Below are positions 7,170-32,435 of a DNA stretch of 64,000 nucleotides, one piece after another. The notes below the pieces were generated by a model. That model did not search any database and was not told the origin of the DNA. It saw only the letters and a program-made list of their open reading frames with translations. Position numbers and translations under genes: made by a program. Positions within the stretch are counted from its first letter, which is position 1. Every line of letters starts with the position of its first letter. This DNA is from Amphiscolops sp. MND2022 (Eukaryota): the NCBI GenBank assembly GCA_964187785.1, contig OZ076409.1, positions 65,846,001 to 65,910,000 of the forward strand, written 5' to 3'.

Positions 7170-7676
7170 TGTTGTAAACCGGTGTTTTGGTTACTTAGTA
7201 CTCGCTTTCTAACCTAAGCAATAAGTCTCAAAAAGTGTTACGAAAAGGAAGATAAATTAAAACTGGAGGTTTACAGTAAGTAGAATTTTGTTAAGTCCTG
7301 CAAATCGCTGACTTGTAAAATTTATAATGTTCTGTCAATTTTGGGACTCTTTGTCCTTTCAATTTTGGGGGATTTTCAGAAAGCAAGAGAGAAGGAAAAT
7401 TGAGAGAAGAGAAAAGAGTTGTTGCTTTCTCAGTGTTCCGCGTTGGAATTGGTACCTGTATTTTTCTTTCCAGCTCAGGACAGTTCTACTGTCGCGTGGC
7501 TTTTTCCTATTGGCTGAGCATTAAAGGAATTTGGGAATTCCAATTTCCTTTTAGCGCGTTGCTATTCGCTTAGAAAATAAAATGCTCTAATAATTCCGCT
7601 TTGGAAATTATTATGTCTCTGAGTCAATTTCCTCTATTGGGAAAATGAACTAAATTAGAAATAGCGCATTGCTACA
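7170..7676 (-). repeat. 3' LTR
   Basis: TGTTG...CTACA. About 5 substitutions versus 18967-19473 by eye. Confidence 0.95.
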
Positions 7677-7686
7677 ACTCACCCCA
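7677..7686 (-). other. Candidate polypurine tract
   Basis: Minus strand TGGGGTGAGT abuts the 3' LTR. It is short and imperfect. Confidence 0.45.
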
Positions 7687-7889
7687 GTTGACAGAGAAGA
7701 CTGCATTAGTCGTAATACCAAAATCAATTAATAAATATAATTGGTATAAAATGGGTATAATGGATAATGGGTAAAACTTATGTAAAGTTTACGTTAAGAT
7801 AAAGCAATTTTAAAGGTTAAATAAGTTTAAGCAAATTATCAAGTTAAAAGAGTTTCAGTTTTGGTTGGAGAGCAGTTTATAGGGGGCTT

Positions 7890-9449: not shown

Positions 9450-9721
9450 CGTGGGTAGGAGTAATTAAGTGTCGTTAAATTCTAAGCTGATAATTAAAGA
9501 ACAACAAAGGATAACTTGGAATAACTGGTAGTTGGTAGTTGGCGACTATACTAAATTTTAGAAAGCGAGTTATATAGGGTTTGTAAGTCAATTTGTGCTT
9601 GTGTCATTATGTTTGTGACCAGAAGAAAAACATCAATAATCACAGTGGTATCTATTCCAAGAAGCCTTATCACTTTTAAGTAAGAGAAATTTCACTAAAG
9701 AGTAAACGTTTTTTGTAAACT

Positions 9722-12076
9722 TTATGGTGGGGGTAATGGAGCATTTCCATTACTGTTGTTATTTGAGGTACTAGGAGCAATTTCATTGACAGTAGTCGGA
9801 GTATTTCCAGAACTGTTATTGCCATTGTTATTTTGTAAAAAGGTATTTAATGTACTAGGAGCATTTCCTGTTTGATTTAATACATTTGAGTCAGCTCTTT
9901 GTCTTTCATTAAGAGTAGAACCAATCGCAATCGGATTGTTCAAGAGATGTACTTGAGGATACAAAAGAGTCGGATTTTCTTCGTACATTGGTGCAGCTAT
10001 AGGTCTATTGCCTGCAGGGTTCTGCGAGAAACCATTTGAAATCCTTTTATTTTCCTCATTTTCGTACATTGGAGTCTGAAGTGAGAGAACAAATAAATTA
10101 AAAGTTGCGCCTAACATAGTTCTGACAAAACCAAAAGTGGCACCAGAAACTTTTCGAATTTCAAGTCCTCGGAGGACAATGACAACAACATCAATAACGA
10201 ACTTTACCAAAAGGAAACAAGCAAAAAAGTTTCCTAAACATTGGATAATATATCCCAATTCGCCAAAAGTTTCCTTGAATTTATCGACGAAAAAAGAAGG
10301 CGTCAACAAGTGATCCAACAGAAGTCTATCATTTAGACTCAAAAGACGTTCCAAGTTTCCCGGTTCGGAAATTCGAACTGAGTTACCTCGAGTCAAAATA
10401 GTCCGAGTAAGCTTCTTCAATAATGTATCAGAAGCAGAGTTGTGGATTACATTATCCCAAAAATTTTTCATTTGATTTGGGGTGTACATTCCAGCACGCC
10501 TGGTGTCGAAAGTTGGAAACTGAGTAATATGTCCAAGTTCAGTTGGCTTGAACAACAAAGGTTTATTGAAAGGCATGGGCTCAGGTAAAAGTTGGTACCA
10601 GGAATTGTCATTCTCGAGATCAAGTTGAAACACATTTGTGTAATCTCCCAAACAGGGTATCTCGGATGCAAAATCATAAGTCTGACGGGTGATAGGATCT
10701 ACAAATTTCGTAGACCGTTCAAACATGATCGGGATTCGATCATAACATTTATCAAGCACTTTCAAGGGCGATAAAAACTTCGGACAATGGTATAACCATG
10801 CGACAGTTCCATCGGTGTCAAGGAACATAGACCTGTTTCCAGTTAACATGTAACCGGCAAGTCTTGTGTTTTGCATTGCTAACATTAGAATAGTTAACAT
10901 TTGAGTTCGTTCGAGTTCGCATTGGCTCTGCAGAAGTGTCATTTCAGAATGCCTCAATTGCTTCGCATTGAAGTACATTATATAGTCTAACTTTGTTCCC
11001 AAGTGCAATTCATAATCAATTTCATCCGCGCCGACGGTATGCCAAGGCTGTGCACCAATCCATTGGCCATTTGATTTGCTGAAAGATAATGACGAATAAG
11101 AGACCTGGCTAGAGTTGCCAATGGAAAATTGGTAGGCGTTAAAAGCATGTTCTTTAGTTCGTAGTTCTCCACCTGGCATTGCGAAACCTCCTTGGTAAGT
11201 CACAAATAGACTCTCAAAATTTGTTTTGAACAATCGTTCAGGTTTCCCACATAGCTCATAGCTTTCAGGGAAGACTTTGATTTTGAGGTTCATTCCTTTG
11301 CCAGTCTCATTATATTCGCTGATTAGGAAAAATTGGTTTTCGTTTCTGTTCGTTGACAATGGATACTTAAGCATTTTTGCTTCCTGAGTGAGGATTTTTG
11401 TCATCACGCAGTTTTCGGGAGTATCCCACGTGTAAGCGAATGGGTCTAAAGTAGTGGTCTCGCAACCACCCTCCATTAAAAGACATGGCAATTTTTGTTT
11501 ATTTGGATTGGAAACCTCTTTGGTTCCGTAATCGAATGTCAAATTCACACGTTGCATGAACGTCTCGAAGGTATAGTGCTGTACTTGACCACTTGAGCAA
11601 TGAATGGTTGTGCGGACTGATTGTCCATCATTGAAATTCGATTGTTTCTTTGTATCGAATTCAATTGGGGCATCGAAGTTTTCGCTAAAAGACGAAATTT
11701 TAATTTTGTTCGTCTTTGATGCCTGTCGGCACATTTCAGGGGTAACGATGAGGTCATACGTTATACTATTTTGAGTATGAACGTAGGACGAATGCGAAAA
11801 CATTCCACAATTGTAGCGGAAGACATGGGCCTTGACAGAACACATTGTTGCTGCCAGATCAGTCCGATAGTTCTTCTGATAAAGTGTGATAGTAGCCGGG
11901 GTGACATACAAGTTTTCTGGTGTGATCTTGCAGTCTGCTACCTTGTTCAGGGAGTACATTCGATTGTCTTGCATTTTTGTGCAATCATAATGAGATACAA
12001 ACAAGTTCTTTGACACATTGTCAAAGTCATCACTTGCACAAGAAAAAGGAAAAAGGAAAAGAATAAAGTAAAACAT
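9722..12076 (-). CDS. env: Envelope glycoprotein, chuvirus-like / class III fusogen candidate
   Basis: Signal-peptide-like MFYFILFLFPFSCA from ATG 12076 (the frame is open from 12175). Cys-rich ectodomain with HYDC, QCELER, CYDRIPI and FVDPITR, NxS/T sequons, and a C-terminal hydrophobic segment LGNFFACFLLVKFVIDVVVIVL. Confidence 0.8.
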   Translation of the reverse strand: MFYFILFLFPFSCASDDFDNVSKNLFVSHYDCTKMQDNRMYSLNKVADCKITPENLYVTPATITLYQKNYRTDLAATMCSVKAHVFRYNCGMFSHSSYVHTQNSITYDLIVTPEMCRQASKTNKIKISSFSENFDAPIEFDTKKQSNFNDGQSVRTTIHCSSGQVQHYTFETFMQRVNLTFDYGTKEVSNPNKQKLPCLLMEGGCETTTLDPFAYTWDTPENCVMTKILTQEAKMLKYPLSTNRNENQFFLISEYNETGKGMNLKIKVFPESYELCGKPERLFKTNFESLFVTYQGGFAMPGGELRTKEHAFNAYQFSIGNSSQVSYSSLSFSKSNGQWIGAQPWHTVGADEIDYELHLGTKLDYIMYFNAKQLRHSEMTLLQSQCELERTQMLTILMLAMQNTRLAGYMLTGNRSMFLDTDGTVAWLYHCPKFLSPLKVLDKCYDRIPIMFERSTKFVDPITRQTYDFASEIPCLGDYTNVFQLDLENDNSWYQLLPEPMPFNKPLLFKPTELGHITQFPTFDTRRAGMYTPNQMKNFWDNVIHNSASDTLLKKLTRTILTRGNSVRISEPGNLERLLSLNDRLLLDHLLTPSFFVDKFKETFGELGYIIQCLGNFFACFLLVKFVIDVVVIVLRGLEIRKVSGATFGFVRTMLGATFNLFVLSLQTPMYENEENKRISNGFSQNPAGNRPIAAPMYEENPTLLYPQVHLLNNPIAIGSTLNERQRADSNVLNQTGNAPSTLNTFLQNNNGNNSSGNTPTTVNEIAPSTSNNNSNGNAPLPPP

Positions 12077-12187
12077 CTTGTATAAATAGAGATAGAAACA
12101 GTAGAAAGATATACAAATGCGCTTTGCATAGGATTTGTTTGGAATGACTTGGCGAGAGAGAGTAGAAAAAGACAAATGATAATAATA

Positions 12188-15100
12188 TTAGAAATAAGGC
12201 TTTCCGTACCACTCTCTAGGAATGTTTCGTAACGTTCCTGTATTTCGTGAGCGTGGAGCAGCGGCAGTACTAGTTGAAGGAATATTGCGGGGTGAAGGAC
12301 TAGGTGTGGTTGGCTGACTAGTTATTGCTGGCGATTCTCCTTGAAATGAAATAGGAGTCTGAGGAGATGACTGAGGGATGCCAGAGTCGGGTGAGCTCGC
12401 TAAGAAAGTCGGTGTCGAATGAGCGGAGCCGCATTTAGCAGGCGAACTATAAGTCGTGTTCATCCTGGATGGACCAGGTGTGTCGGGAAATATAGGTAAG
12501 TATTCTTGTACGTGCTGTCGTTCAGCAAGCGTTTCAATTGGTTTGTTCAATTCGGAGAGTCGATTCTTTGCATACTCGTTGTAAAAATGTTCGGTTCTGT
12601 CGTCGTTGACAGGCTTTTCGTAATTGGACAACAATGTCGGTAAGTCATTATTACGAGGGAAAAATTCAACGAGATGATTACGATGAACGACATGAATCCT
12701 CGTTGGATCCGAATCGAGCGCGACTTCGTAGTTCACTTTCGTGATCACTTTAGTTACAGTGTACGGTCCACTTCGGAGCTCGCACAGTTTTTGTGATTTC
12801 CCGAATGGGACTTGATGATTTTCGAGTAGTACTTTTTGTCCAACACGTAATGGTTTAGCAAGTTTGTACTTGTTTCGGTACGGCAGAGATCGATGATTCG
12901 CTTTACGAACCTTTGTATATACTTTTCTGTATATGTTTTTGAATTGTGTTTCTCTGTGTAACAAATCCAATGAACACTTTGACGTCAGTAAGGAGTCGAT
13001 GCAAGAATGTTTCGTGTCTTTATTCAGGTGTGAGTGGTCAGGTAAAGACTGACAGAATTCGGATTGACACAAATCATTGTCGTCTCTCCCTAGACCTAAT
13101 TTCAACGAAATTGGAATTTGTGGTTTAAATCCGAAAACAACTTCGTAGGGGGTTGTTCCTGTACTGGCGTTCACTGAAGTGTTATGAGCGAAGGCGAACT
13201 GAGGAGCCAGCTTGGCCCAATTATTTCCTGCTTCGGAAAGATAGCATCGAAAATATCGACTGAGGTGTTTGTTTTGAATTTCAACCTTGCCGTTAGTCTA
13301 AGGAGACCATTTAGTTCTTGGGGCATGCGTTATGCCTAAATCCAAGAGAAAGGTTGAGAAATCGGTGCTCATGAACGATGTTCCTCTATCATATACAAGT
13401 TTTTGAGGAATACCAAACGAAGTAATGAAAGAAGTCATGGCTTCAATGGTATCACTTGCATCAGTCGACTTGACTGGGTAAACTTGTATAAATCGTGAGA
13501 ATGCGTCAATCACAACCAAACAGTGATGTTTCCCGTCGCTCATCGGATTCAGAGGTCCTTTGTGGTCGATGTGAACAGTGTGAAAGGGATAAGGAATTTC
13601 TTCTCCCCATTTTTCATTTGGAGCGGTGTTTTGATCCTTTCTGACTTGTTTATTTTTTTGGCATATTAGGCAGCTCTTCGTTAGAGTCCGCACCCATTTA
13701 TACATACCAGGCCAATAGAAAAATCTTTTCAGAGACAAAAGTGTCTTTTCACATCCGGGATGTCCTGAAAGTCGATGGTCGTGTGCAACATTGAAAGCTT
13801 CAATGAAACAGTTGCGAGGCAAACATATTTGTCGTGATGAATGCTTGCTAGTTTTACAAACAAGATGGGTTTCTTCATCGATGAACAATTTTTCAAATTG
13901 ATTTGAGTAGCCAAGTAATCCCTTGCATTGTCTTGACTCGACATCTTTTGACGGCACTTTGCCTTTAATTATCCATGATTTAACAGTGCTCAGGACTGGG
14001 TCATCCTGTTGGTTTGCCAAAATATTGTTTAAGTCTAGATTATCGGTAACGAGTTTCAATGGTTGTAGTGAGTCTTGAATGGTGAAAATGGAGAGGATGA
14101 AAGGAACATCTTCTTTAGATGCATTTACAACCTCTGTGTTCAATAGAGGATCTTCGTCAGAAGCCTCATTGTCACTATTGTCGGTTTCGGAGTCAATTTC
14201 GGAATAATGATTTTCCTGAACTTCGGCTTCCACAACCATTGGTGGGGTTTGCCATTTACGTCGAATGTTGATGTCCTTACCTTCACGGAAGGAATCAGAA
14301 ACATCAAAGAGCGCTTTCGGAGAGTTTGGATCGTATACCGTACAAATAAGATCTGTACCATCATTTTTCAGGTGAAGTTTCTTTGTTTCACCCAAGTGAG
14401 TGCAAACAATTGGGTAGAAATCATCGTTGGCGCTTTCAGCAGGGCTGTTGTGGTCTATCAGATACTGAACTTCGTGTCCACTTTGGCTGAAGAACTTTAT
14501 ATCTTTTGGAATTTCTTTGTGAAGCAATTGGTGCCCGTTGAGATCTTTCAACGACACATTTCTGCTTAGCAAATCTGGAAACGCTAAATTCTTTCCAGGG
14601 GTCCAAATGATTTGCAAATTAGTGAACTGAGTGATAATCACTTGGTAGCGGAAGAATCTATGAGATAATCTTCCTTTGCGTGCCCATAGATACAGGAGGG
14701 GCTTGTGATCACAGAATACCTTGATGGGATGCCGAGATCCAATTATGAAATGCTCATACGTTTGTAGAGCAGAAATGATTCCGCACAGTTCTCGATGTAG
14801 CGTTGACATCTTTTGTTCATCCTTTGTAAAGACTCGCGAATTGAAGGAAACTATACGTTTCCCGGAAGGAAAATCTTGAATTAAGATTGATCCCGTACCA
14901 ATACTGGAGGAGTCGACATGGATGTGGAACGGATACTTTGGGTTTGGTACAGCTAAGATGGTTTCTTTGCTGATTCTATTTTTTATGTCTTAGAACAAGT
15001 TCTCATGCTCTTTTGTCCATTTGAATGGAGTGTCATCTCTCAGAAGTTCGTAGAAAGGTTTCGAATCTACATGTAAATTTTTGATGAAGGTGCTGTAGAA

Positions 15101-17110
15101 ACCTAAACTTCCTAAGATGCGCATTACATCTCTTTTGTTCTCAGGGCTTTTCAGGTTTTTCAAATCTTGTACTTTTTTGGCTACTGGCTGGATTCCTTTG
15201 TCGGAGACAATGTGTCCAAGAAACTGAACTTTCCTCAAGAACAGTTTTGTTTTGTTCGGTGCAGCTTTCAGACCTGATGATCTCAAGCACTTGAAGTATG
15301 AATCCAAATTATTCCACATTTCTTGTTTGGTTTTTGCCTGTAAGATAACATCATCAATATATGTTATCACTTGTTTCTTGGCTATCATTTCAGCGAAATG
15401 AATAGTCATTATCCGACTGAAGAAGTTTGGTAGTCCGCAAAGACCATAGAATCCTCGTTCGAACATGTACTGTTTTCCACCAACAATAAAGCTTGTCAAC
15501 TTCTTCGTATCCTCGGTGAGGGGTACTTGGTTATAGGCGGAAGCTAAATCACTCGTTGTGTAATAAACTCCATCAAGTCGTGTCAGTAACATTTGTACTG
15601 GTTCAAGGGGCCATGAGTAGTTAGTCAAGTCAGTGATTGAGTTAAGATAACGTGCGTCAATCACAAGCTTCACGGTATCTCCTTTTGGTAAAATGATGAT
15701 AGGGTTTGTGAATAGGGAACCCATTTCCACATCATTTCCCATTTCTCGAATGATTCCAGCTTGTTGCAGTTCATTCAGAAGAATTTCAAGTCGGTCTCTG
15801 TAGTGCAGAGGGACTTTTGAGGGCCTTTGTTTTCGCAATTCGGCGTTTTTCTTCAATTGTACATGAAATGCTTGTGTGATTTTTCCAACATCATAAGTAA
15901 ATTTTGAAAACACGTCATTGTTTTCAACTAAAACTCGGAGAAGATGTTGTATTTCACGGTCATTTATATCGGATTCAGAAAAGTCAATTTTTTCTAAAAA
16001 GTTGCGTTCGGCGGGACTAAACTCGGCGTAAAATTCATCGTCGAGTTGTTTCCTTTTAATATCGGAAGCAGTTTTGGGCATTTTCGGTTGTAATGATTTC
16101 ACCTCATTGGAGAAATCAGTAGCCAGTTCATTTTGCGAAATAGCGCTTTCGGCCATTTGTTTCCGTGAATCAATTTCCGTTAAGGAATAAATATACGGTT
16201 CGGTCGAACAAACGTGTAAATCCTTGTTCCATTGAGACTCAGAAGTTTTGAGATACTCAATGAAAGCGACATTGTCAACGACACTCATCAATTGCGAGGT
16301 CTCTTGGACGCTGTCGAGCAATGTGTATCCAAGAATTCCTTTACGAATAGTAATACTATTCGGGTTCGGATTGTTCAGCATTAAAGGATATTTCGACTCG
16401 TCTTGTGAGCAATACACGTGATACGTGTAAATGCCAGTATCTAAAATGTCTTGGTGTAAACGGAAACTTGTTCCCTGTTTGAACAAATGTTTATCTTCAT
16501 CTCTAGCAATTAAACTCAAAACTCGGGTCGAATACGGTGCAATTGTAATGTCTTGAGTCAATTCTACTGAATTAACCTGGGAGAAGTAGGGAAAAGGCTT
16601 GTCTAAATAAGGTGACAGTTTAACACATTTGCCGGGGAAGACCGTTAAAATTAGCATTGGATTTCTCAAGTTAATGAATTCACCAAAATTTGCCAAAAAA
16701 TCCATTCCAAGAATGTTCATTCTCGCCTCGGGGGAATCAGACACATAAACAGTGTGTTCGATCACACAAGAATATTCTACGTCAAACGCAGACTGAATAA
16801 TAGTTTTCCCTTTCATGGGCATTGCGTGTCCATTAGCAGCTAAAGGCGATTTCTCGAGAGGCGTTACAACTAAAGGCTGAATTTTGTTAATTTCAGTGAA
16901 TGTCTCACGGTTGATAATGGAGCACGTTGCGCCAGTATCTATGAGAAATTGAGTGCTGAGGCCATCATTTTTATTTTTGTCTCCGACGGCGTATTGAAAT
17001 AATTCTATATAAAAATGTTGGCCGGACGTTCCAGCAGTTGGAATGTGAGGGGTTTCATTTGATTCCTCACTTTGTTGGTTCGGAGACTTGATTAGTTTAA
17101 AGGATTGCAT
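12188..17110 (-). pseudogene. pol: pol polyprotein (protease, RT, RNase H, integrase) with two in-frame stops
   Basis: ORFs 14990-17110, 13298-14809 and 12188-13174 share one frame. Motifs: DTGA (PR), YIDD (RT), VDSS...FCDHKPL (RH), HHCC, HIDH/YDRG/GKVE (IN) and GPY. Stops are TAA 14990-14992 and TAG 13298-13300. Confidence 0.93.
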
Positions 17111-18195
17111 GACTGCAGAGTGTCATACAAAGAATTCACCTTGTCAGGCTTTGCTTCGAACCGAACAGCTCCAGAGTAGCTGTTACTTCTGCTTCGGTAG
17201 CCATTTGAAACATAAGGACTATTACTTCTGCCTCTTTGGCCGTTGGACCGATTGTCCGATTGTGATGTGTTATTATTCGGAGACTTGGGTCGACTTGGAT
17301 AGTTTTGCGCATATGTTTCTTTTGGTTGGGGAGGAGGTTTTTCCTCGTTTTCTTTCTTCTTTTTCAATGTCCAACAGTACTTGATTGTGTGTCCGGATTT
17401 TTTGCAATAGTTGCAAAATCTAGTAAAGTCTTGTTTCATTTTTGGGTTGTTCGGATCATAGGTAGCATTGATTTGATGATTTTTCACCATGTTGGTGATT
17501 TCATTCAATGTTTTCTCTATGTTAGTGAAACGGGCGTCCATTGTCCCTGTTGAAGTTTGGGAACTTGAAGGTTGCAAGCCGGACATTTCGGCACTCACAA
17601 CTAAACTCATATCTTTATTTATGATAAGAGTCTGTAAAGCGTCCCATGATTTGTTGGGATCTTCAATCATTGCTTGATGGGCTTTCTGTTTAAGACCCGG
17701 GGGCATTAAGCCTCTTATGAAGTAGTCTTTGTACTTCCCAATTCTCTGATTTTCGCATGCTGTGATAGCCTCTTGATTCGCATTTGACGGTGTTGGCCAG
17801 CCTTTGTCTACCAACGTTTTTATTCTGTGGATGTAACTTTTTATGTTTTCATCAGGCTGTCTTTTCAGATTCTCGGCCTCAATTCGGAACCGATATTGCA
17901 TTTTTCTATCCGTAAACCTGTTTATGAATTGTGTTTTCATTTCTTCCCATGCTAACGCAGCGTCTAATGAATCAAACCACTCAGCCGCAGGTCCGCGTAG
18001 AACGGATCCGAAAAGTGCTTTTCTGCGGTCGTCATACACGGTTTGTTGGCCATTTTCATTTGCCGTAGGCCTACTTCCTAAAGAAAAGCTGATTTTCTTT
18101 TCTAATAGACGTATAAAAGCAGTTGGGTCCTCACTTGAATCGATTCCAATGAACTTCTCTAATGCTAAGTCAGGGTACGCTACAGTGTTTGCCAT
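17092..18195 (-). CDS. gag: Gag, 367 aa
   Basis: Retrotransposon capsid-like region (LRGPAAEWF) and CCHC knuckle CNYCKKSGHTIKYC. Confidence 0.93.
   Translation of the reverse strand: MANTVAYPDLALEKFIGIDSSEDPTAFIRLLEKKISFSLGSRPTANENGQQTVYDDRRKALFGSVLRGPAAEWFDSLDAALAWEEMKTQFINRFTDRKMQYRFRIEAENLKRQPDENIKSYIHRIKTLVDKGWPTPSNANQEAITACENQRIGKYKDYFIRGLMPPGLKQKAHQAMIEDPNKSWDALQTLIINKDMSLVVSAEMSGLQPSSSQTSTGTMDARFTNIEKTLNEITNMVKNHQINATYDPNNPKMKQDFTRFCNYCKKSGHTIKYCWTLKKKKENEEKPPPQPKETYAQNYPSRPKSPNNNTSQSDNRSNGQRGRSNSPYVSNGYRSRSNSYSGAVRFEAKPDKVNSLYDTLQSCNPLN
17095..17101 (-). other. -1 ribosomal frameshift slippery site U UUA AAC
   Basis: The gag frame reads CCT TTA AAC TAA, and pol is in the -1 frame. 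Confidence 0.8.
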
Positions 18196-18495
18196 TTGTC
18201 TATTTAATCACGTTTACTTTGCTCCTTCATCACACTTTACAATTTTATTATTATTTTTGGCAATAACAGACTGGATTTTTGTGTAGAAGTTTCGTTGCTC
18301 CAATACACATGTAAAAATTGTTTACAAAGGAATCTCTTCGATCCTTTCGCAAATAAATAATTTTTGGAGTTTTGTTGCTCCTTTGAAATGGACAGTTTCT
18401 GCGTATTTAAGCCTTAACACGGAATGTTAAATTCCAAGGCAGCAGGCGAGGTGAAATATGGGCTTTCCATTTTCTTGCGAAACCTCGCTGGGATC

Positions 18496-18720
18496 GTGCA
18501 ATTTAAGGAACACTCGTGTGTCAGAAATAAATTTCTTCCACGGAACCCGCACAGGCTAATACCGAAGCTAGCGTAAGTGGATACTGTTTAGACTCAGTAC
18601 CAAGAGTTGTGCAATTTAAGGAACACTCGTGTGTCAGAAATAAATTTCTTCCACGGAACCAGCACACGCTAATACCGAAGCTAGCGTAAGTGGATACTGT
18701 TTAGACTCAGTACCAAGAGT
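18496..18720. repeat. 113-bp tandem duplication in the retroelement 5' leader
   Basis: GTGCAATTTAAGGAACAC...CCAAGAGT at 18496 and 18609. Confidence 0.9.
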
Positions 18721-18949
18721 ATGAAATTTTGTTTAGTATCTGCTTTAGATACTAAATGTTGTCAAAAAGTGAATTTTTGTTTAATATCTGCTTTAGATAT
18801 TAAATGTTGCACAAACAGTTGTTATTTTTCAAGAAATATTTGCTTTAAATATTTCAATTTTGAAAGATAAATCCCACCACGGGGAAAAGATTTTTGTTTT
18901 GTACGCTCGGTTTTATGGTCGTACAAATTGCGGTGTGAAATTGTTCTTT

Positions 18950-18964
18950 GCTCTGGTCGCACCA
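18950..18964 (-). other. Primer binding site TGGTGCGACCAGAGC
   Basis: Begins with TGG, 2 nt after the 5' LTR. The primer tRNA was not identified. Confidence 0.75.
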
Positions 18965-18966
18965 GA

Positions 18967-19473
18967 TGTTGTACACCGGTGTTTTGGTTACTTAGTACTC
19001 GCTTTCTAACCTAAGCATTAAGTCTCAAAAAGTGTTACGAAAAGGAAGATAAATTAAAACTGGAGGTTTACAGTAAGTAGAATTTTGTTAAGTCCTGCAA
19101 ATCGCTGACTTGTAAAATTTATAATGTTCTGTCAATTTTGGGACTCTTTGTCCTTTCAATTTTGGGGGATTTTCAGAAAGCAAGAGAGAAGGAAAATTGA
19201 GAGAAGAGAAAAGAGTTGTTGCTTTCTCAGTGTTCCGCGTTGGAATTGGTACCTGAATTTTTCTTTCCAGCTCAGGACAGTTCTACTGTCGCGTGGATTT
19301 TTCCTACTGGCTGAGCATTAAAGGAATTTGGGAATTCCAATTTCCTTTTAGCGCGTTGCTATTCGCTTAGAAAATAAAATGCTCTAATAATTCCGCTTTG
19401 GAAATTATTATGTCTCTGAGTCAATTTCCTCTATTGGGAAAATGAACTAAATTAGAAATAGCGCATTGCTACA
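18967..19473 (-). repeat. 5' LTR
   Basis: 507-bp near-identical copy of 7170-7676, adjacent to the PBS. Confidence 0.95.
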
Positions 19474-22500: not shown

Positions 22501-23230
22501 ACACACTCATCTGTTGTAATTTTCAATTGCACAACTATTCATCATCAACTCTTTATCAACAACAGCAGCTCTTTCTTCAACGCTAACACTTCTATTCAAT
22601 CTTCTACGACTATACAAAATCCCGCAGCAAATGTTAGTATTTTTCTAAGTGAATTTCCATTCCCAATCAACAAAAATAGCAAGCTTCTTTAGTTTTTTTT
22701 CTGTTATAGCATGTCTCAAAACAACAACACCACCACCAGCATCGCCGCCGCCGCCACCAGCATCGCCGCCACCGCCACCACCACCACCAGCATCGCCGCC
22801 ACCACCACCCAGAACTAACCAGAAATGGAAATGTGGGTTATTTATTTGTTCGTTTGCTTACTGGATTGAAAACAAATTCTTATTAAATTTTCACGAGCTG
22901 CAAATCAAACTGTTTTATTCTAGAATCATCAACGCCAATTCGCAGTCGCCTCTGCTTACCACCCCGATCTTTGTTTTGCCGCCGCCCTACGAAGAAGAAG
23001 AAGAAATTTATTCATCGGAGATCTCCCAGGACTCAATGTCCGAGGTATGTTGAAGCAATGTTCATATTTTTGACAGAATTTTTTTTGTTTGCGCCCTTTA
23101 GCAATTGAGAACCTTAACGAAAGTCAAGTTGCACAATCATTGAAAAAAAGGCAACAAAAATAGTTTCCTATTGTAACAACGAATGTACACTAAACCTTCA
23201 GTTCGAAAAAATTTTGTGTGGAAAACATTG

Positions 23231-24464
23231 CTTTTGTGTTGTTTGCGCATTGCCATTGTACAATACAAGTGCATACACGCACGTAGGACTTGTGTAACGA
23301 CCCCGTGGGTGACCGGACAAAATCCGCGTCGCGCGGATTTTTATTTTTTGCTTTTGTCAAGCTCCCCGTGCATTGTGGGAATGTTGTTTTTGTGTTGTTT
23401 GCGCATTGCCAATGTACAATACAAGTGCATACACGCACGTAGGACTTGTGTAACGACCCCGTGGGTGGCCGGACAAAATCCGCGTCGCGCGGATTTTTAT
23501 TTTTTGCTTTTGTCAAGCTCCCCGTGCAATGTGGGAATGTTGTTTTTGTGTTGTTTGCGCATTGCCAATGTACAATACAAGTGCATACACGCACGTAGGA
23601 CTTGTGTAACGACCCCGTGGGTGGCCGGACAAAATCCGCGTCGCGCGGATTTTTATTTTTTGCTTTTGTCAAGCTCCCCGTGCAATGTGGGAGTGTTGTT
23701 TTTGTGTTGTTTGCGCATTGCCAATGTACAATACAAGTGCATACACTCACGTAGGACTTGTGTAACGACCCCGTTGGTGGCCGGACAAAATCCGCGTCGC
23801 GCGGATTTTGATTTTTTGCTTTTGTCAAGCTCCCCGTGCATTGTGGGAATGTTGTTTTTGTGTTGTTTGCGCATTGCCAATGTACAATACAAGTGCATAC
23901 ACGTACGTAGGACTTGTGTAACGACCCCGTGGGTGGCCGGACAAAATCCGCGTCGCGCGGATTTTTATTTTTTGCTTTTGCCAAACTCCCCGTGCATTGT
24001 GGGAATGTTGTTTTTGTGTTGTTTGCGCATTGCCAATGTACAATACAAGTGCATACACGCACGTAGGACTTGTGTAACGACCCCGTGGGTGGCCGGACAA
24101 AATCCGCGTCGCGCGGATTTTTATTTTTTGCTTTTGTCAAGCTCCCCGTGCATTGAGGGAGTGTTGTTTTTGTGTTGTTTGCGCATTGCCAATGTACAAT
24201 ACAAGTGCATACACGCACGTAGGACTTGTGTAACGACCCCGTGGGTGGCCGGACAAAATCCGCGTCGCGCGGATTTTTATTTTTTGCTTTTGCCAAGCTC
24301 CCCGTGCATTGTAGGAATGTTGTTTTTGTGTTGTTTGCGCATTGCCAATGTACAATACAAGTGCATACACGCACGTAGGACTTGTGTAACGACCCCATGG
24401 GTGGCCGGACAAAATCCGCGTCGCGCGGATTTTTATTTTTTGCTTTTGCCAAGCTCCCCGTGCA
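23231..24464. repeat. Tandem array of ~8 x 156 bp inside the Polinton
   Basis: Near-identical units, each with the hairpin AAAATCCGCG-TCG-CGCGGATTTT. The 52-codon periodicity shows in both overlapping ORFs. Confidence 0.95.
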
Positions 24465-24486
24465 ACCAAATGTTTAAACACAAAAA

Positions 24487-24695
24487 GGTCTTGTTGGTGT
24501 CGCGGTCATGGTGATTTGCTAGACATTGTCGCCTGCCTCTTGGGAAGGCAGGGTGATGCTGAAAACATCAACAATCACAGTGGTATCTATTCCAGAAGGT
24601 TGAGCCTCGACCCCCACAGAGGTTCAAACCTTCATCACTGAGAACTCTGCCGACAATGTCCGGCCCCGATCAGTATCCGCTGGACTAACAGGACC
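24487..24695 (+). ncRNA. Candidate structured ncRNA (~210 nt), possibly a Pol III / VA-RNA-like transcript
   Basis: Nested helices 24487-98/24684-95, 24522-31/24651-60, 24532-38/24546-52, 24554-58/24566-70, 24578-84/24634-40 and 24595-608/24619-33. G-U pairs favour the + strand. A-box-like TGGTGTCGCGG and B-box GTTCAAACC. Confidence 0.55.
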
Positions 24696-24774
24696 TTTAT
24701 TTGACATGAAAATAGTTTCAGCAATAAAGATCCAGAGACTATGATTGTAGATTTTATAGAACGACGTTGTTTTT

Positions 24775-25893
24775 GTGTTTGTTCAGGAGATGAAGTTCCG
24801 AAAGCAGCGGGACGCTTTTCAAGTTCTTTACGACTATTTTCGAAGAGGTCGCCAGTCAAGTTTCCACGTTGTGGTCCTCACGCCGTACGTTGAGCAATTC
24901 ACGAATAATTTCCTTGGTTACAGCGCTACTGTAAAAGACTACAGCAAAGTTCTTTTTCCCTGTCAATCGATTGACGAGGACGTCAATCACGTTTACCGAA
25001 GTTTCCTCGGTTCAAACACGGACGTGAAGCCAATAAATCGGAAAAAATACGAGGTGATGGATTACCACTACAAGCGATCCTTCGACAATCTAGTCCTCGG
25101 TATTGATTACGATGAAATTGAAAAAGATTTCCCCGCTGGCGATTCGGATTCGGACGATGATTGGAGTGACGATGGGATCTTCAATCATGATGTAGCAGTT
25201 CCTGATATAACTTTCAACAACCTCAACGACAATCAAGCCGTCAGGGTCTTCAAGGTCCTTGCAAAGATCAATGATTTCCCATCTTTGCTGGTCGGAGAAA
25301 CACGCTTCATTATTGGTCTGAGCAGCCTGCCGGTAGAATCCGTCAACGATGGGTTCCCTATTAATTTTTACTGGGATGTTGGAGAAATGCAGTTGGTTGA
25401 AAATGACACTCTTATTTTCTTGCCAGACGACTGCCTCGAGAAACTGGAGACCATTTGGCTCAATAGCAATAACGAAGAGAATTTCTTCGAATTTCTTCTC
25501 ATTGTCGATTTTGAGCAGGGTGTGCTGCGATTTGGCCTCAACGACCAATTACTTTTGCAGACAATCTGTTTCCAAAGTGACCTCGCTTATGAGATTAGAA
25601 TTTACTTCACCAAAACCACGGAATCATTGATGATATTAGAGGTTTTCAATCAGCCAAAAGCCTTGTCAAGTCTTGTGCCAGAGTGTCTGTTGAATATGTA
25701 TCAAGAGCAGGCCGACGATTTGTTTAGCTGTCAATGGGCCAACGAATTTGTTGAACATCTGGTGAAAAAATTCTATTTTCAGAATTGTTCAAAAGGTTCA
25801 ACGGTCACTGATGAACATCATCCCCTGATGGTTTCCCGGAAGTCTCTCTTGGAAGCCCATAGAATTACCAGAATGCAATCGCAAGCTCTGTAA
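24775..25893 (+). CDS. Polinton accessory protein, 372 aa, unknown
   Basis: Long ORF with protein-like composition and an acidic patch. The start is uncertain. Confidence 0.7.
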   Translation: MFVQEMKFRKQRDAFQVLYDYFRRGRQSSFHVVVLTPYVEQFTNNFLGYSATVKDYSKVLFPCQSIDEDVNHVYRSFLGSNTDVKPINRKKYEVMDYHYKRSFDNLVLGIDYDEIEKDFPAGDSDSDDDWSDDGIFNHDVAVPDITFNNLNDNQAVRVFKVLAKINDFPSLLVGETRFIIGLSSLPVESVNDGFPINFYWDVGEMQLVENDTLIFLPDDCLEKLETIWLNSNNEENFFEFLLIVDFEQGVLRFGLNDQLLLQTICFQSDLAYEIRIYFTKTTESLMILEVFNQPKALSSLVPECLLNMYQEQADDLFSCQWANEFVEHLVKKFYFQNCSKGSTVTDEHHPLMVSRKSLLEAHRITRMQSQAL

Positions 25894-27039: not shown

Positions 27040-27401
27040 ACGTCTCTTAAAGCTCGATGTTTTGTTGTATATGTGTTTGTTTGTTCTTGCGCGTGCGTTA
27101 AGTTTGACACTTTTTAATTTTGGCCAACTTCTCATTACGTTTCACTTATTGGCTTCTAAATAGGCATTTTTTCATACAGTACTTCGGTTCTCATTTATAC
27201 TCATCAGGCTAACCCCTCTGTGACGTGTTGCGTATACAAGTTTGTTTCCGGACCATTTATATAAATACCTTCTTCATATAATTTATGTTGTTGATTTTGT
27301 TTTTTTTTACTATTTGGAATCTTCATCAATCTTACAGTAGTTTTAATTGCTTCTGTGACACGTTTAATTCTTGTTGCATTGCGTTTGTTGCAGATTATGC
27401 C

Positions 27402-30400
27402 ATGGGGTTCAATCCTGAGCAGTACTATAGTGTAAATCGAATGCCACAAAGACGTAGTCTGTTGCGAGCGGCCAGCAGAGACTATGAAGTGTACTTCACG
27501 GACATTGAAAGTGTGCTGGATCGAATTAAAGAGATTTTCAACCACCTCATCAACAAATTGATATCTGAGATACAGCAAGATCTTCCTGGTCATTCACACA
27601 GAATTCGATTGGTATTGAATGCGCCTACCCTCAACTATCCTATTCATATCCCATTCTCGTCCGTAGCGGATTTCAACGCCGAACTGATTCCCGATGAAAT
27701 TGACAGGGTCGTTAATTCCAATGAGTCATTTGATATTAGCAACAATATCAAAGTCAACGTTTTGAGTGTTTCTTTACCAACAATGGGCGGGAACCGGCTT
27801 GGAGGCATACAGAGCAGGACTGTTCCCGATATCAAGCTCTTCACGAAACAAAAGAAGTCAATAATTGTAATCAAAAGTGACCAGAACGATTGTCTTTTGC
27901 GGGCCATAGCAATTGGCATCAAAGTTAAGGAGCGATCTCCCTGGCCGCCTAGTAAAAGAAAAACGACAAAAAACTTGCACCTAGATCGGGCTTCCGTGCA
28001 AACGCGTGAAATGCAGCATTTGATAACCCTTCTGAAATCTGATCCAAGCATCCCCCAAGACGAATTGCAGACAATTTTGGCTGGTGGTGCTTCCTCGAAA
28101 AGACTTCCCACCTCTGCCTTTGACGACTCCTCTACTGGGTTGCTTCACCATCAGACAGCTCAAACCTCTCCTGCTTATGGTAAACCTCTTGCTCTACAAG
28201 ATTTAGAATTTTTGTCTCAGTCGCAAGTGTTGAAAGACTTTTGTTTATCTGTTTACGATAGCAACTTTATGGGCACTTTCCTTAAATGTTATAATCAGGA
28301 AGCACAGCAGAATATCGACCTTTTGTATGATGCTCAAAACAGACAAGTAGATTTAGTTACCTCAATGAAAGGACTATTCGATGCTCGCCACTACTGTTAC
28401 AGTTGTCACAAGGCCTTTTCCACAGTGAAGCATTTATGCTCTGCCAGTGGTTGTTTGCTGTGTCGGCAGCCTGGCTGTCTCAATAGGACCGGTTTCATCA
28501 ACCATTCGCCGCTCAATTGGACTACCTCGTCCAATGACTTGTCAAAGACCCCTCGCCAGTCACCGGTTTTCCAGTGTGATAGATGCAGGCTAAAGGTACG
28601 AAGCCAAAAGTGTCTGGATTGCCATGTTACCTCTGGGGTGTGTCATTTGTACACTTTGTGCCCTACATGCGACAATACTGTACCTAAGCGAGCTTTCTCC
28701 AATCATATTTGCTCAAAAAAACGCTGTTCTACTTGCTCCGTCCATTACTCATTGTCAGACCGTAAAAACACCTCTTCGCCTTCATCGGAACATCAATGTT
28801 TTGTACAAAAACCGAAGAGATGTATAGAGCGAGAAATACCGAATGGTGATACCAATAACGAATTTCCTGATTGTGAAATATTGGGCGGAGAGAATTATCG
28901 TGAAGAAGTTGAGAAAGAAGATCCGATGACGCAAATCAAACGCAGGAAAATGAGCAACGCTCCAGTCGATGACGATGGTACTGTTACGTCTCGTGACCAG
29001 CCAGCAAACAACTTTGCACGAGCTCCCTCGGATGACAAAATTTGGGTTTTTGACATAGAAACTGACCAGAGTTGTGGCAATGAAGGGCTACATAAACCAA
29101 TTCTACTGGCAGCAGAGTCTTTGACAGGTGATGAAGTTATTTACTGTGGCTACGATTGTATAAACGATTTTTGTGAGGATGTTTTTGCTAGTGTTGAAAG
29201 GGTTCGTCAAACTGAATGGTTTATTGCCCATTTTGGCAGTGGGTTCGATTTCCTACCAATCCTGGAATGGCTCTACAAACAACACAAATATGTTCCCAAA
29301 ATTTTGCTCAGAGGTAACAAGGTTGTGTCAATGCGTGTGGGGAATAAACGATTCATTGACTCTTATCTTTTCATCCCGATACCTTCATCAAATTTTCCCA
29401 CAACGTTCAATCTCAAGGAATTGAAAAAAGGATACTTTCCTCATTTTTTGACATCTAAAGAGGCCCTCTATCCCGCCGCTACTTCAAAGCTGCATAGTTT
29501 ACAAACATGCGAGAAAGGGGAAAACTGCAATCTGCGCAAAATTGTTTCCAACGACTGCAATCACTGTGTAGCTACACAAAGCAATGTTCGCTGCTTCAAT
29601 GCAGGAAATGACCAAGAAGAAGAATGCCAAGAGTTTGCTCTCAAAGAGAGCCAATTTCCACCCGCGTGCCTTTTTGCTTTGAATTCGATGAAAGGACAGC
29701 AAACGGTGAGCACGTTTTTGGAATGGCACTCAGCACAGACCCAGCTTTATAAAGTTAATAAGCTCGTTTACGACTTTCAACAAGAACTCGTGTCGTACTG
29801 TCAGTCAGATGTTAAACTACTCAAAGAGGGTTTTTTGAAGTTTAGAACATTAATCAAGAAAGTGTGCAGCGGAATAGATCCGTTCGAAGTCGCTTGCACA
29901 GCATCAGCATGTAATTACTTTTATAGACAACTATTCATGCCGAAGGACTCCATCGCAATCCTCCCTCAGAACGGTTACACGGGCAATGAGTTAACGTCTT
30001 TCCCAGCTGCCGTTTGGCTGTCGTGGGTGGAACAAGTTGCAAATGATCGGAAGTCAAACGAGTTCAGTATTCGTCTGTATAAATCAGGCGGAGGATTGAA
30101 GCGAGGCAGAGGTAAGGAGCAGACACTTGGATCATTCAATGTAGACGGACTTCTTCTGTACAAACGAACATCTCAATCAAAGAGTACCGCATGTGGGAGT
30201 GTTGTCCAGAAACCACAACTGTCGATAGTTTTGGAGTTTTCTGGATGTTACTTCCACGGGTGTCCTTCTTGTTATACAGACCGAGATGAGGTTAATAAGA
30301 AACGAAATGCTACAACAATGCATGATTTGTACACCACAACAGATATGGACAGACTGGACTGGATATCAGCTCAAATCTCGAACGGCACAGTCTTCACAAC

Positions 30401-32435
30401 AACAGATAACTTACGTTTTGTTGTGCATAGTATATTTTTCATTTGGGAATGTGAGTTTAAAAAACTGTTGGAACTGTCCATATCTGAAGACGAAGAAGGA
30501 ATTGATACAACGTGGACGCATTTGCCGAGGTCAGTAGCAGCAAGACTCAGCAGCTCCCCCTCGAGCATTTCCGATGACATCCAGCAGGTCGAACAAAGTC
30601 GTGTAATACATCAGACCTTACTGTATCGGCTGAGTAACATCAAACTACTGCAACAGATGTCAAATGACAGCATTCGTTACAGTCCGTTACAGCCTCGTGA
30701 CGCTTTTTTTGGAGGAAGAACAGAAAATTTTGTCATGAAGTGGTCTCGACAACTACAGTCTCAGACCTTCAAGTATGTCGATGTTTGTTCGCTGTACCCA
30801 TATGTGAATTCCAGGTCAGTGTACCCTTCAGGGCATCCTGATTTGATTCTGATTGCTACAGAACAGCAACAACAATCGATTGCGCGTAAAGGAAAGGCTC
30901 GGAATAACAGCAACTCTGCCAATGAAAAACCGCCTCAAACCAGTTGGTTTGACGAGGATGTGAATGTAGCTCAAAGTAAAGCTGTGGAGTTTAAATTTTT
31001 GGATCGGGTTGACAGGATTCTTACAATGCCCAGTAACGAACGAGACTCGGGAGGAGATCAATGTGAAGCTGAAAAATCACATTCTCTGCCTCCACCACAG
31101 AGGTTCCGAAAGTTTTCGCAACGAACGCTTTTGGAATTCCCCTTAACTTTTGTTGAATTAAAATTGAAAAACGAGGATTATTTTGGTCTGATAAAATGCC
31201 AAGTACTGCCACCGTCTGATATACATCTACCCATTTTACCATTCAAATTTCAATCGAAACTCTTTTTTCCGCTATGTCGAAGTTGCGTTGAAGAAAGATC
31301 CAGCATGCCTGACAAAAAGAGTGTGGACTTGACATCAAAGAAGTGTGTTCATCGCCAAGTAGAAGAGAGGAGTTTCTGGGGCACATTTGCTACCCCAGAA
31401 GTTAAGCTTGCTTTGGAAAATGGATACCGAGTGATAGATGTAGCAGAGATTTGGAGTTGGTCGAGAGCAAAAAGGTCTGTGACATTGTTCAAAGAATATA
31501 TCGATAACTTTTTGAAAATAAAAATGGAGGCATCTGGTTGGCCAAAAACATGCCGCTGTGAAGAGAAGATGAATTCTGATTCATCGACAGAAATGATATG
31601 CGAGCATAAGAGGCGTTACCTTCAGGAGATGAAGAAGAAAGAAGGCATTTCACTTGACCCTGCGAGGATAGAGAAAAACGAAGGTCTACGCTTTATTGCT
31701 AAAATACTTCTGAACAGCTTCTGGGGTTATCTCGGAATGCGGGATAATATGCCAAAAACGAGGTACGTCAACAACTATCGAGAGGTCGTGGACTATTTCA
31801 CATCGCGAACAAAAAGAGTTACTGATGCGACTCTAGTGGGCGATGATTTGATGCTGCTACAATATCAACTCATTGATGACGCGGCAGACGCTCCGCGGAA
31901 GACAAATGTGATTCTTGCTGCCTTCACAACTGCACATGCTCGCATAATACTTTTCAACAATATGCAGCTGGTGAAAAATCCTAAAAATGTACTCTATTGT
32001 GATACAGACAGTATCATGTATGTCCACGATCAATCTCTGACCGATTCCCCGGATATCTCAATTGGGAGTGGACTGGGCGAAATGACCGACGAACTGCCTC
32101 CTGATGTCTTGATTGACAAGTTTTGGAGTGCAGGGCCAAAGTTTTATTGCTTGTCTGGTCACAACGTTAAAACAGGACTGGAGTATAATATTTTCAAAGT
32201 CAAGGGTGTAACGCTGAATAGGGCTACAGAGAAAACATTCAACCCCGATACCTTCAGAAAACTCGTGCTTGGTGAGACTCATGAATTGCGAAGTCCTTAC
32301 AGTAGTCTGAGTCGTTGTGTTCGAACAGGCCAACTGAAAAACAAGTTTTGTGAAAAACGCGCCCGAGTCACAAGTAACAAACGTGTTTTCAACACAAATT
32401 CCGGCGAATCTACACCGTTTGGTTACGTCGGTTGA
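27402..32435 (+). CDS. polB: Protein-primed family B DNA polymerase
   Basis: Exo I FDIET, Exo II AHFGSGFDF, Exo III YCQSDV, EFSGCYFHGC insert, motif A DVCSLYP, motif B KILLNSFWG, motif C YCDTDS and KVKG. Cys-rich N-terminal region. The frame is open from 27285 and the likely start is ATG 27402. Confidence 0.97.
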   Translation: MGFNPEQYYSVNRMPQRRSLLRAASRDYEVYFTDIESVLDRIKEIFNHLINKLISEIQQDLPGHSHRIRLVLNAPTLNYPIHIPFSSVADFNAELIPDEIDRVVNSNESFDISNNIKVNVLSVSLPTMGGNRLGGIQSRTVPDIKLFTKQKKSIIVIKSDQNDCLLRAIAIGIKVKERSPWPPSKRKTTKNLHLDRASVQTREMQHLITLLKSDPSIPQDELQTILAGGASSKRLPTSAFDDSSTGLLHHQTAQTSPAYGKPLALQDLEFLSQSQVLKDFCLSVYDSNFMGTFLKCYNQEAQQNIDLLYDAQNRQVDLVTSMKGLFDARHYCYSCHKAFSTVKHLCSASGCLLCRQPGCLNRTGFINHSPLNWTTSSNDLSKTPRQSPVFQCDRCRLKVRSQKCLDCHVTSGVCHLYTLCPTCDNTVPKRAFSNHICSKKRCSTCSVHYSLSDRKNTSSPSSEHQCFVQKPKRCIEREIPNGDTNNEFPDCEILGGENYREEVEKEDPMTQIKRRKMSNAPVDDDGTVTSRDQPANNFARAPSDDKIWVFDIETDQSCGNEGLHKPILLAAESLTGDEVIYCGYDCINDFCEDVFASVERVRQTEWFIAHFGSGFDFLPILEWLYKQHKYVPKILLRGNKVVSMRVGNKRFIDSYLFIPIPSSNFPTTFNLKELKKGYFPHFLTSKEALYPAATSKLHSLQTCEKGENCNLRKIVSNDCNHCVATQSNVRCFNAGNDQEEECQEFALKESQFPPACLFALNSMKGQQTVSTFLEWHSAQTQLYKVNKLVYDFQQELVSYCQSDVKLLKEGFLKFRTLIKKVCSGIDPFEVACTASACNYFYRQLFMPKDSIAILPQNGYTGNELTSFPAAVWLSWVEQVANDRKSNEFSIRLYKSGGGLKRGRGKEQTLGSFNVDGLLLYKRTSQSKSTACGSVVQKPQLSIVLEFSGCYFHGCPSCYTDRDEVNKKRNATTMHDLYTTTDMDRLDWISAQISNGTVFTTTDNLRFVVHSIFFIWECEFKKLLELSISEDEEGIDTTWTHLPRSVAARLSSSPSSISDDIQQVEQSRVIHQTLLYRLSNIKLLQQMSNDSIRYSPLQPRDAFFGGRTENFVMKWSRQLQSQTFKYVDVCSLYPYVNSRSVYPSGHPDLILIATEQQQQSIARKGKARNNSNSANEKPPQTSWFDEDVNVAQSKAVEFKFLDRVDRILTMPSNERDSGGDQCEAEKSHSLPPPQRFRKFSQRTLLEFPLTFVELKLKNEDYFGLIKCQVLPPSDIHLPILPFKFQSKLFFPLCRSCVEERSSMPDKKSVDLTSKKCVHRQVEERSFWGTFATPEVKLALENGYRVIDVAEIWSWSRAKRSVTLFKEYIDNFLKIKMEASGWPKTCRCEEKMNSDSSTEMICEHKRRYLQEMKKKEGISLDPARIEKNEGLRFIAKILLNSFWGYLGMRDNMPKTRYVNNYREVVDYFTSRTKRVTDATLVGDDLMLLQYQLIDDAADAPRKTNVILAAFTTAHARIILFNNMQLVKNPKNVLYCDTDSIMYVHDQSLTDSPDISIGSGLGEMTDELPPDVLIDKFWSAGPKFYCLSGHNVKTGLEYNIFKVKGVTLNRATEKTFNPDTFRKLVLGETHELRSPYSSLSRCVRTGQLKNKFCEKRARVTSNKRVFNTNSGESTPFGYVG

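Follow-up and report, generated by a model that had tools for sequence, protein, structure and literature searches.

Introduction

In the passages of a review devoted to them (PMC10899785), triggers of target-directed miRNA degradation (TDMD) are described as having a seed match, usually an 8-mer, and 3′ pairing of 6 bp or more, with the pairing between the two broken at positions 9 and 10 so that the target is not sliced. Validated triggers leave 3–11 central nucleotides unpaired, the cytomegalovirus UL144-145 trigger is an intergenic site that needs 16 downstream nucleotides, and all known viral triggers are herpesviral, according to the same passages (PMC10899785). A transposon-derived case is MIKKI, described in excerpts of PMC5599236 as a rice retrotransposon-derived mimic of miR171 with a slicing-resistant site, mismatched at positions 11 and 14, that lowers the level of the host miRNA. 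Small RNA genes read by Pol III also occur in viral genomes, as in the viral pri-miRNAs of BLV, foamy virus and MHV-68 (TMERs), and the adenovirus VA RNAs I and II have an internal A/B-box Pol III layout. PKR is the best-known target of VA RNA. The central-domain tetrastem of VA RNA is described as invariant in PMC6599070.

We analysed a 64,000-nt stretch of the genome of Amphiscolops sp. MND2022 (contig OZ076409.1, positions 65,846,001–65,910,000), referred to here as the window and numbered from its first nucleotide. By our sequence comparisons the host is probably an acoel worm: its 18S rRNA is very divergent, and the named H2A proteins of ordinary length that score best are those of Symsagittifera roscoffensis (92%) and Convolutriloba macropyga (90%), histones being a weak marker. 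A Polinton within it probably carries, on its minus strand (24695–24482), an ncRNA gene for Pol III, whose transcription is predicted from sequence, and the RNA contains a 28-nt motif that recurs in unrelated mobile elements.

Judged by analogy, the Polinton RNA most likely works like HSUR1, m169 or MIKKI, while being a member of none of these groups. The herpesvirus triggers HSUR1 and MCMV m169 (for miR-27) and HCMV UL144-145 (for miR-17/20a) resemble its predicted site in their seed match, central mismatch and long 3′ pairing, and in the occurrence of the same kind of site both in a small ncRNA and in the non-coding part of an mRNA (sections of PMC10899785 and PMC4378190). They differ in that here a Polinton, gypsy elements and non-coding elements share one site, the guide is only predicted and the central mismatch covers 2 nt; HSUR1, moreover, is an Sm-class, snRNA-like RNA, whereas the Polinton RNA has a Pol III layout. 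MIKKI and IPS1/miR399 are similar in kind, MIKKI being a transposon-derived RNA with a slicing-resistant site, but MIKKI appears in the excerpts of PMC5599236 as one domesticated plant element that serves its host, whereas the motif described here is found in thousands of copies, in several classes of element and in an animal, and some of its carriers are intact and near-identical. The Polinton RNA differs from the Pol III viral pri-miRNAs: its motif is not part of one arm of a hairpin of the pre-miRNA kind, and ARAGORN detected no tRNA domain in it. The VA RNAs share with it a terminal stem and a U-tail in addition to the promoter layout, and a carrier with pPolB and adenain, but they are shorter (~160 nt against ~210 nt), and in the Polinton RNA it is a transferable sequence motif that is conserved. 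In promoter, terminal stem and terminator the Polinton RNA is built like VA RNA; a match to the Rfam VA model and a conserved tetrastem were looked for and not found.

The Polinton and the surroundings of the RNA gene

The window holds an intact Polinton/Maverick on the + strand (22167–44123), with Pfam matches for pPolB, Pox_A32, rve and Peptidase_C5. The Polinton setting put forward in the initial annotation was borne out, as the 22-kb element has TIRs (22167/44123), a 6-bp TSD, pPolB, an A32 ATPase, an rve integrase and an adenain protease, the features by which Polintons/Mavericks are recognized. These genes are all on the + strand, with the protein-primed DNA polymerase B at 27285–32435 (PF03175, E 2e-26), and so is that of a probable major capsid protein (41234–42571; weak Capsid_N match, E 0.07; 45 homologues), a label that rests partly on position and size. 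The RNA gene sits between a 156-bp tandem array of ~8 units (23228–24465, assigned to neither strand), which begins just past the 3′ end of the RNA, and the first long ORF (24790–25893, + strand; 367 aa, without a Pfam family), from which it diverges. In each 156-bp unit, T runs follow a GC-rich hairpin. Directly before the ORF (24760–24790), a pyrimidine tract runs up to a TTCAG that looks like a splice acceptor; the RNA gene may thus be antisense within an intron of a Polinton + transcript.

Among the best 40 of 620 candidates in a DNA search of the genome, at least 15 copies of the region were 98–100% identical (window copy included) and at least 10 diverged copies were 80–91% identical; on this sample, the Polinton and its sister copies number about 25. 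Between the window element and one sister, the left arm is 86–90% alike and the coding part 96–97%.

Strand and promoter of the RNA

The predicted product of the minus strand is a ~214-nt Pol III type-2 transcript (24482–24695) running from a GGTC start to a T5 run, with a terminal stem and a multibranched core. Its A box at +9 (24677–24687, minus strand) matches TRGYNNARYGG exactly, and this match is kept in 7 of 11 copies, in three sequence variants; in an eighth copy (L022) the box is shifted by one base. The B box at +66 (24621–24630) is nearly palindromic, exact on the + strand and with one mismatch on the minus strand in most copies (exact in L015), and the same variant is used by the class C RNAs introduced below; in type-2 genes the B box is expected 30–60 nt downstream of the A box. 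Directly after the terminal stem comes a T5 terminator (24482–24486, minus strand), present as T5–6 in 10 of 11 copies. No other A-box/B-box pair occurs on either strand of the whole 22-kb Polinton.

The initial annotation had favoured the + strand and named the minus strand as the alternative. The + strand call is probably wrong, and the minus strand the better reading, given the conserved minus-strand A box and T5–6 run, neither of which the + strand has in any copy, and the unique A/B-box pair. The A-box-like element reported near +10 of the + strand departs from the consensus TRGYNNARYGG in all 11 copies, and is in fact the pairing partner of the true A box on the minus strand. The reported B-box match GTTCAAACC is present at 24622–24630. 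The TTTATTT at 24696–24702 is likewise there on the + strand, but its reading as a terminator did not hold, as none of the 11 copies has T5 there and T4 is found in just one, a decayed copy. Three points speak against the minus strand: the window copy folds much better on the + strand, the B box has its mismatch, and an internal T4 run (24562–24565, minus strand) lies within the predicted transcript in window-type copies, where most diverged sisters have T3. From that run a shorter product of ~134 nt could be made, as predicted from sequence.

Folding and covariation

Both strands of 24487–24700 fold better than their shuffles, as the initial annotation had expected of a structured RNA: the + strand reaches −93.4 kcal/mol (z −6.66, matched by none of 200 shuffles) and the minus strand −76.7 kcal/mol (z −3.13, matched by 1 of 200). 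The multibranched fold closed by a 12-bp terminal stem is present in the + strand prediction. The argument that G-U pairs mark the + strand proved not to be robust, as the + fold contains eight such pairs and the minus fold six of its own. Among nine diverged sisters, the minus strand folds lower in six, and pairs that are G-U on the plus strand are about as numerous as those that are G-U on the minus strand. The folding edge of the + strand holds in both window-type copies folded and is gone in the diverged sisters.

In a minus-strand alignment of 10 copies, 96% of the cells of 58 pairs stay paired, but changes on both sides occur in just two pairs. The covariation score of this alignment was reached by 2 of 500 shuffles, a modest degree of support because the structure was derived from the same alignment and related sequences can beat shuffles. 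In the Polinton sister copies, the stems are less conserved than the 28-nt motif: across eight diverged sisters the motif is identical at 215 of 224 positions (96%), against 1225 of 1456 (84%) for the rest of the RNA. The fold of the initial annotation is real and conserved, and the earlier reading is partly confirmed. Conservation of the promoter boxes, the terminator and the fold supports the prediction of a structured ncRNA gene of the Pol III type inside the Polinton.

A motif shared by unrelated mobile elements

The 28-nt motif lies in the middle of the RNA and is read on the minus strand from 24593 (24593–24566). It was first seen as at least 15 short DNA-search matches confined to 24554–24599, among the best 40 of 620 candidates. 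Its core, GGAATAGAT-NN-CACTGTGA, has 3,117 sites in the genome against none for the reversed control, copy counts that reflect a few expanded families and not independent events. The motif occurs in eight flank classes, comprising the Polinton RNA, two other Pol III-type RNAs (classes B and C), gypsy types and two other pPolB elements, and all loci fetched with core and tail intact belong to mobile-element classes. The viral and metagenome contigs searched did not contain the motif, nor did the viral contigs searched contain a related capsid locus. A literature search outside subscription journals found no paper with the motif and, in titles and abstract openings among the matches listed, no description of a Polinton ncRNA.

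The class B and C RNAs are 215–231 nt long, 76% alike and begin with GGTCT. They have an A box near +9, a B box near +66, the motif at +98 to +103 and a T5–6 run at +215 to +231, and the strand that has the motif in sense gives the better fold (z −4.1 to −6.6), except in one of five copies, where the opposite strand has a slight advantage in z. Homology of the Polinton RNA to these classes outside the boxes and the motif was considered and set aside, as the signal is weak (z 2–4 in the 5′ half) and equal on both strands; none was detected in the 3′ half. The class B carriers (L080-L081, L090-L091, L073-L074 and L083) are a non-coding repeat with internal inverted repeats, common to two chromosome-1 loci over at least 19.9 kb at 99.3%; the repeat is without an ORF of 200 aa, and no cargo is evident in it apart from the Pol III-type RNA. 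The class C carriers (L149-L075-L150 and L082) are foldback palindromes of ~16 kb, with 84-bp tandem arrays in their arms and the Pol III-type RNA present twice, both copies facing inwards.

A second copy of the motif in the window (9631–9658, minus strand) lies in sense within a gypsy-type LTR element unrelated to the Polinton (7170–19473, minus strand; gag, pol and a fusion-type envelope gene), ~60 nt past the envelope stop codon. The LTRs of this element are ~98% alike, its pol is split over two frames, its envelope ORF encodes a Monjiviricetes-type fusion glycoprotein, and a fourth ORF of 519 aa is without a Pfam match. A ~100-nt cassette in it comprises the motif and the first codons of another family's last ORF, and was apparently taken from that different gypsy lineage. 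The motif is sense-oriented in all five gypsy lineages, whose motif carriers have envelope-type ORFs, and it lies between or after ORFs in the layouts mapped: before the last ORF, after env in a second family, twice between pol and env, or before the 3′ LTR. When gypsy copies were picked by their downstream flank, 62 of 64 carried the motif. Two related gypsy lineages are without it, and the motif therefore behaves as a module that is gained or lost.

A second pPolB family also carries the motif, its PF03175 match lying just over the cut-off. Members of this family (L140-L148 and L224-L228) are ~14–16 kb long, with ~156-bp TIRs and tandem arrays of 114 bp and 640 bp, and their polymerase includes an endonuclease VII domain; the stretches read contained no ORF of 150 aa for a capsid protein or an integrase. 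Tandem sites with differing central dinucleotides occur twice over, as two sites in one gypsy family and seven in one pPolB family. The seven-site array (L386:4864-5507 and L387) adjoins a pPolB gene on the opposite strand, a polymerase recognized by its likeness to the second pPolB family and not by Pfam; the sites are spaced 93–114 nt apart and three are exact at all 17 fixed positions. Two further, degenerate sites lie ~1.1 and 1.5 kb beyond.

The distribution of the motif bears on the possibility that the + strand is the functional one and that the motif's complement, supplied by it, is a guide directed at gypsy RNAs. Window-type copies have their best fold and an exact B box on that strand, and the complement lies on the polymerase strand in all three pPolB elements. 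Against this, the A box and terminator are absent from the + strand of every copy (0 of 11), classes B and C run in one direction only, the one that has the motif in sense, and a targeted site is one that gypsy elements should lose, not capture and duplicate. We consider such a role very improbable.

The initial annotation had compared the RNA with VA RNA, an equivalence that our data do not support. No Rfam family reached threshold for the window RNA, including VA, vault, Y and 7SK, and Rfam was equally silent for class B and 10 further loci, save that the U2 loci matched U2. Covariance models and ARAGORN gave no match to vault, Y, 7SK, SRP, tRNA or snoRNA. The tetrastem tetranucleotides of VA RNA occur as one such pair in the window copy, its first half varies in the sisters, and no such element is conserved. 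A VA-like RNA would be abundant, made by Pol III and partly double-stranded, and would saturate Dicer, Exportin-5 or a dsRNA sensor, the motif being secondary. The type-2 layout, the mismatched terminal stem and the U-tail all recall VA RNA, and the Polinton shares pPolB, ATPase and adenain types with adenoviruses; yet the Rfam and tetrastem comparisons gave nothing, the stems are less conserved than the motif, and gypsy RNAs carry the motif without the scaffold. As the most conserved part of the RNA is a motif shared with such scaffold-less RNAs, sequence-specific recognition is favoured over dsRNA mimicry. We think it distinctly improbable that VA-like saturation is the main function; it could be a side activity of the RNA.

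Fixed and free positions of the motif

On the minus strand, the motif divides into a fixed block at positions 1–9 (24585–24593), the predicted partner of the 3′ half of a guide (t11–t19); a free dinucleotide at positions 10–11 (24583–24584), a predicted t9/t10 mismatch; a fixed 8-mer ending in A at positions 12–19 (24575–24582), a predicted seed match plus t1A; and, at positions 20–28 (24566–24574), a free base followed by a conserved tail beyond the predicted 22-nt site. A base other than A stands at position 10 in 1,062 sites, and position 11 takes all four bases, while position 9 departs in 34 sites. Departures in the tail were seen at position 21 (non-T in 47 sites, 21 of them from one subfamily), position 23 (34 sites) and position 24 (six sites). 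At position 20, T and C are about equally common in one family, and another has A. Among 30 distinct gypsy versions, position 11 is 80% constant and position 20 53%, with 87–100% at the other positions of 1–28; in the gypsy family sampled by its downstream flank (62 carriers of 64), position 10 is invariant. Spacing of the tail shifts by 2–4 nt in two subfamilies with the core unchanged, and in subfamily B3 (21 copies) the core–tail spacing is broken. The shared motif is almost certainly under selection, to judge from this pattern of sequence conservation.

One reading of the pattern is that a host protein recognizes the motif, either as RNA (an export, stability or translation factor, for which the Pol III RNAs would be decoys) or as DNA (an activator or insulator protein with multiple zinc fingers). 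The Su(Hw) sites of the Drosophila gypsy element are a precedent for an insulator-type DNA site. Three fixed blocks, with free positions at 10–11, 20 and 29, recur about every 10 nt, a period that fits a modular protein; the tail is fixed as strongly as the core, the motif occurs in tandem arrays, and no complementary host gene was found in the pattern searches described below. The 2–4-nt movement of the tail relative to a stationary core fits a protein ligand poorly. A DNA site, furthermore, would need neither a Pol III scaffold around the motif in two unrelated RNAs nor a sense orientation in five of five gypsy lineages, and the wobble on the sense strand of a gypsy hairpin, described below, points to RNA. 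Recognition by a host protein is, in our estimate, rather unlikely.

A predicted decoy for a host small RNA

We propose that the RNA and the shared site act as a cleavage-resistant decoy for a host Argonaute-loaded small RNA of the miRNA type, a prediction that we regard as evenly poised between right and wrong. Pol III would make the folded ~210-nt minus-strand RNA abundantly, and the RNA would present a binding site that resists cleavage, soaking up or destroying one host small RNA. A 22-nt guide starting with U would pair through its 8-mer seed with motif positions 12–19 (t1 being A), its 3′ half would pair with positions 1–9 and ~3 nt beyond (−1 to −3, mostly pyrimidine), and position 20 would fall just outside it. 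Mismatches at t9/t10, opposite positions 10–11, would block slicing and make the RNA a sponge or a TDMD trigger, and the lowered level of the small RNA would benefit mobile elements in general. If so, repeated capture of the site by different elements would follow, and tandem sites with differing centres are the layout expected of a sponge. The guide register was fitted after the variation was seen.

In eight RNAs for which accessibility was computed, the site opens more easily than 71–91% of sampled windows. Opening the 22-nt site costs 5.0–11.3 kcal/mol, whereas the duplex is predicted at roughly −28 to −30 kcal/mol; the seed part is partly paired in the predicted folds and costs 2.5–6.8 kcal/mol to open. 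Upstream of the free pair there are nine fixed positions, where at least 6 nt of 3′ pairing is asked of triggers (the pairing here being predicted), and the free central positions number two, against 3–11 unpaired nucleotides in validated TDMD triggers. The 8-mer is identical to the seed match of vertebrate miR-128 and overlaps that of miR-27, with no orthology implied. The main text of a Hofstenia miRNA preprint contains no such seed.

One gypsy family has a wobble polymorphism in its hairpin (26 U-G and 23 C-G of 52) that is valid on the sense strand only, which favours a function at the RNA level. In one large gypsy family, an upstream arm pairs with the site and buries it in a hairpin, an odd arrangement for a sponge. 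In the L044 class (for example, L044, L157, L304 and L320), an imperfect complement before the motif gives a hairpin of ~20 bp whose loop is 3 nt long and whose centre has a 5×5 mismatch, its arm resembling the predicted guide with a different centre.

The tail (positions 21–28) is fixed as strongly as the core, yet lies outside the 22-nt site. A longer, piRNA-like guide of ~30 nt, for which the elements would be decoys, would span both. The conserved span of 28–31 nt and the recurrence of free positions about every 10 nt are compatible with such a guide. Position 20, as T or C, could pair with G and, for a guide starting opposite position 29, would lie across from t10, and the gene for the guide would resemble one more copy of the motif and so escape negative search patterns. 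However, the fetched loci with intact core and tail are all of mobile-element classes, and subfamily B3 breaks the core–tail spacing. A guide of this length seems to us improbable.

Searches for a host partner

Returning to the 22-nt guide of the proposed decoy, its host gene was not found in genome pattern searches with exact, wobble, bulged and hairpin designs, in which two patterns were judged among the 100 places listed for each and one-by-one screening was confined to sites without the usual tail. L160 (C6:66780381), a single-copy spliced gene with no Pfam match, has a 19-nt perfect complement of the motif beside its probable stop codon; this may be a chance match, of which we estimate that 0.02–0.06 would be expected. 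A unique perfect palindrome with 67-bp arms, one of them guide-like, lies at L433:4398-4531, 1 kb from a second perfect palindrome of 644 bp (322-bp arms; L433:2762-3405). These palindromes were set aside as a guide gene, being probably fold-back duplications or an assembly artefact, and the sub-threshold Rfam miRNA matches of L433 follow from the perfect stem. L289/L290, L292, L263 and L256 offered no convincing pre-miRNA.

Pairing of the motif with the branch-site region of host U2 snRNA was also considered. The duplex with nt 24–47 of host U2 reaches −20.0 kcal/mol, equalled by 3–4 of 300 shuffles, but the candidate was picked after the fact, and U2 would pair with the free positions 10 and 11 and form only wobble pairs with the fixed positions 1, 5 and 16, so that we find this partner hardly credible. 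The U2 genes form a tandem array (L212-L215; C4:81.04-81.08 Mb) with units of 717 and 1,089 bp.

Other candidates were rejected. Compared by eye with the spliced leader of Symsagittifera roscoffensis, which may differ from that of the host, the motif showed none of the identity or complementarity that would be expected of a leader or anti-leader. For a U7/histone downstream element, no similar element was found after the histone stem-loops and no complementary RNA with an Sm site; in the histone clusters (L243-L254; ~3.6 kb), U-rich and not purine-rich sequence follows the stem-loops. The primer-binding site of the window gypsy differs from the motif, and no CCA-less source gene was found. A run of envelope codons that resembles the motif is broken by synonymous changes, and a hairpin of the tail with downstream sequence reached p<0.05 in only 5 of 23 contexts. 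The 18S rRNA and ~20 kb downstream of one copy gave no notable match to the motif.

Implications for mobile elements

The proposed decoy can be extended into a wider claim, which we hold to be possible though somewhat short of an even chance: that Polintons, envelope-bearing gypsy elements and giant non-coding elements of this one genome have all captured the same site, which a single host small RNA would bind but not cleave, and that they express it in Pol III RNAs, the non-coding regions of mRNAs and tandem arrays. If true, this would be a genome-wide counter-defence that crosses classes of transposon, with one small RNA acting as a general brake on mobile elements, and the first viral trigger of miRNA degradation from outside the herpesviruses, as well as the first made by Pol III. 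If the site is a decoy, target-directed miRNA degradation would extend from herpesviruses to transposons and Polintons, and thousands of natural variants would map which pairs matter. Whatever its ligand, the motif is held under strong constraint by unrelated elements, and so would mark a host pathway that mobile elements must exploit or disarm.
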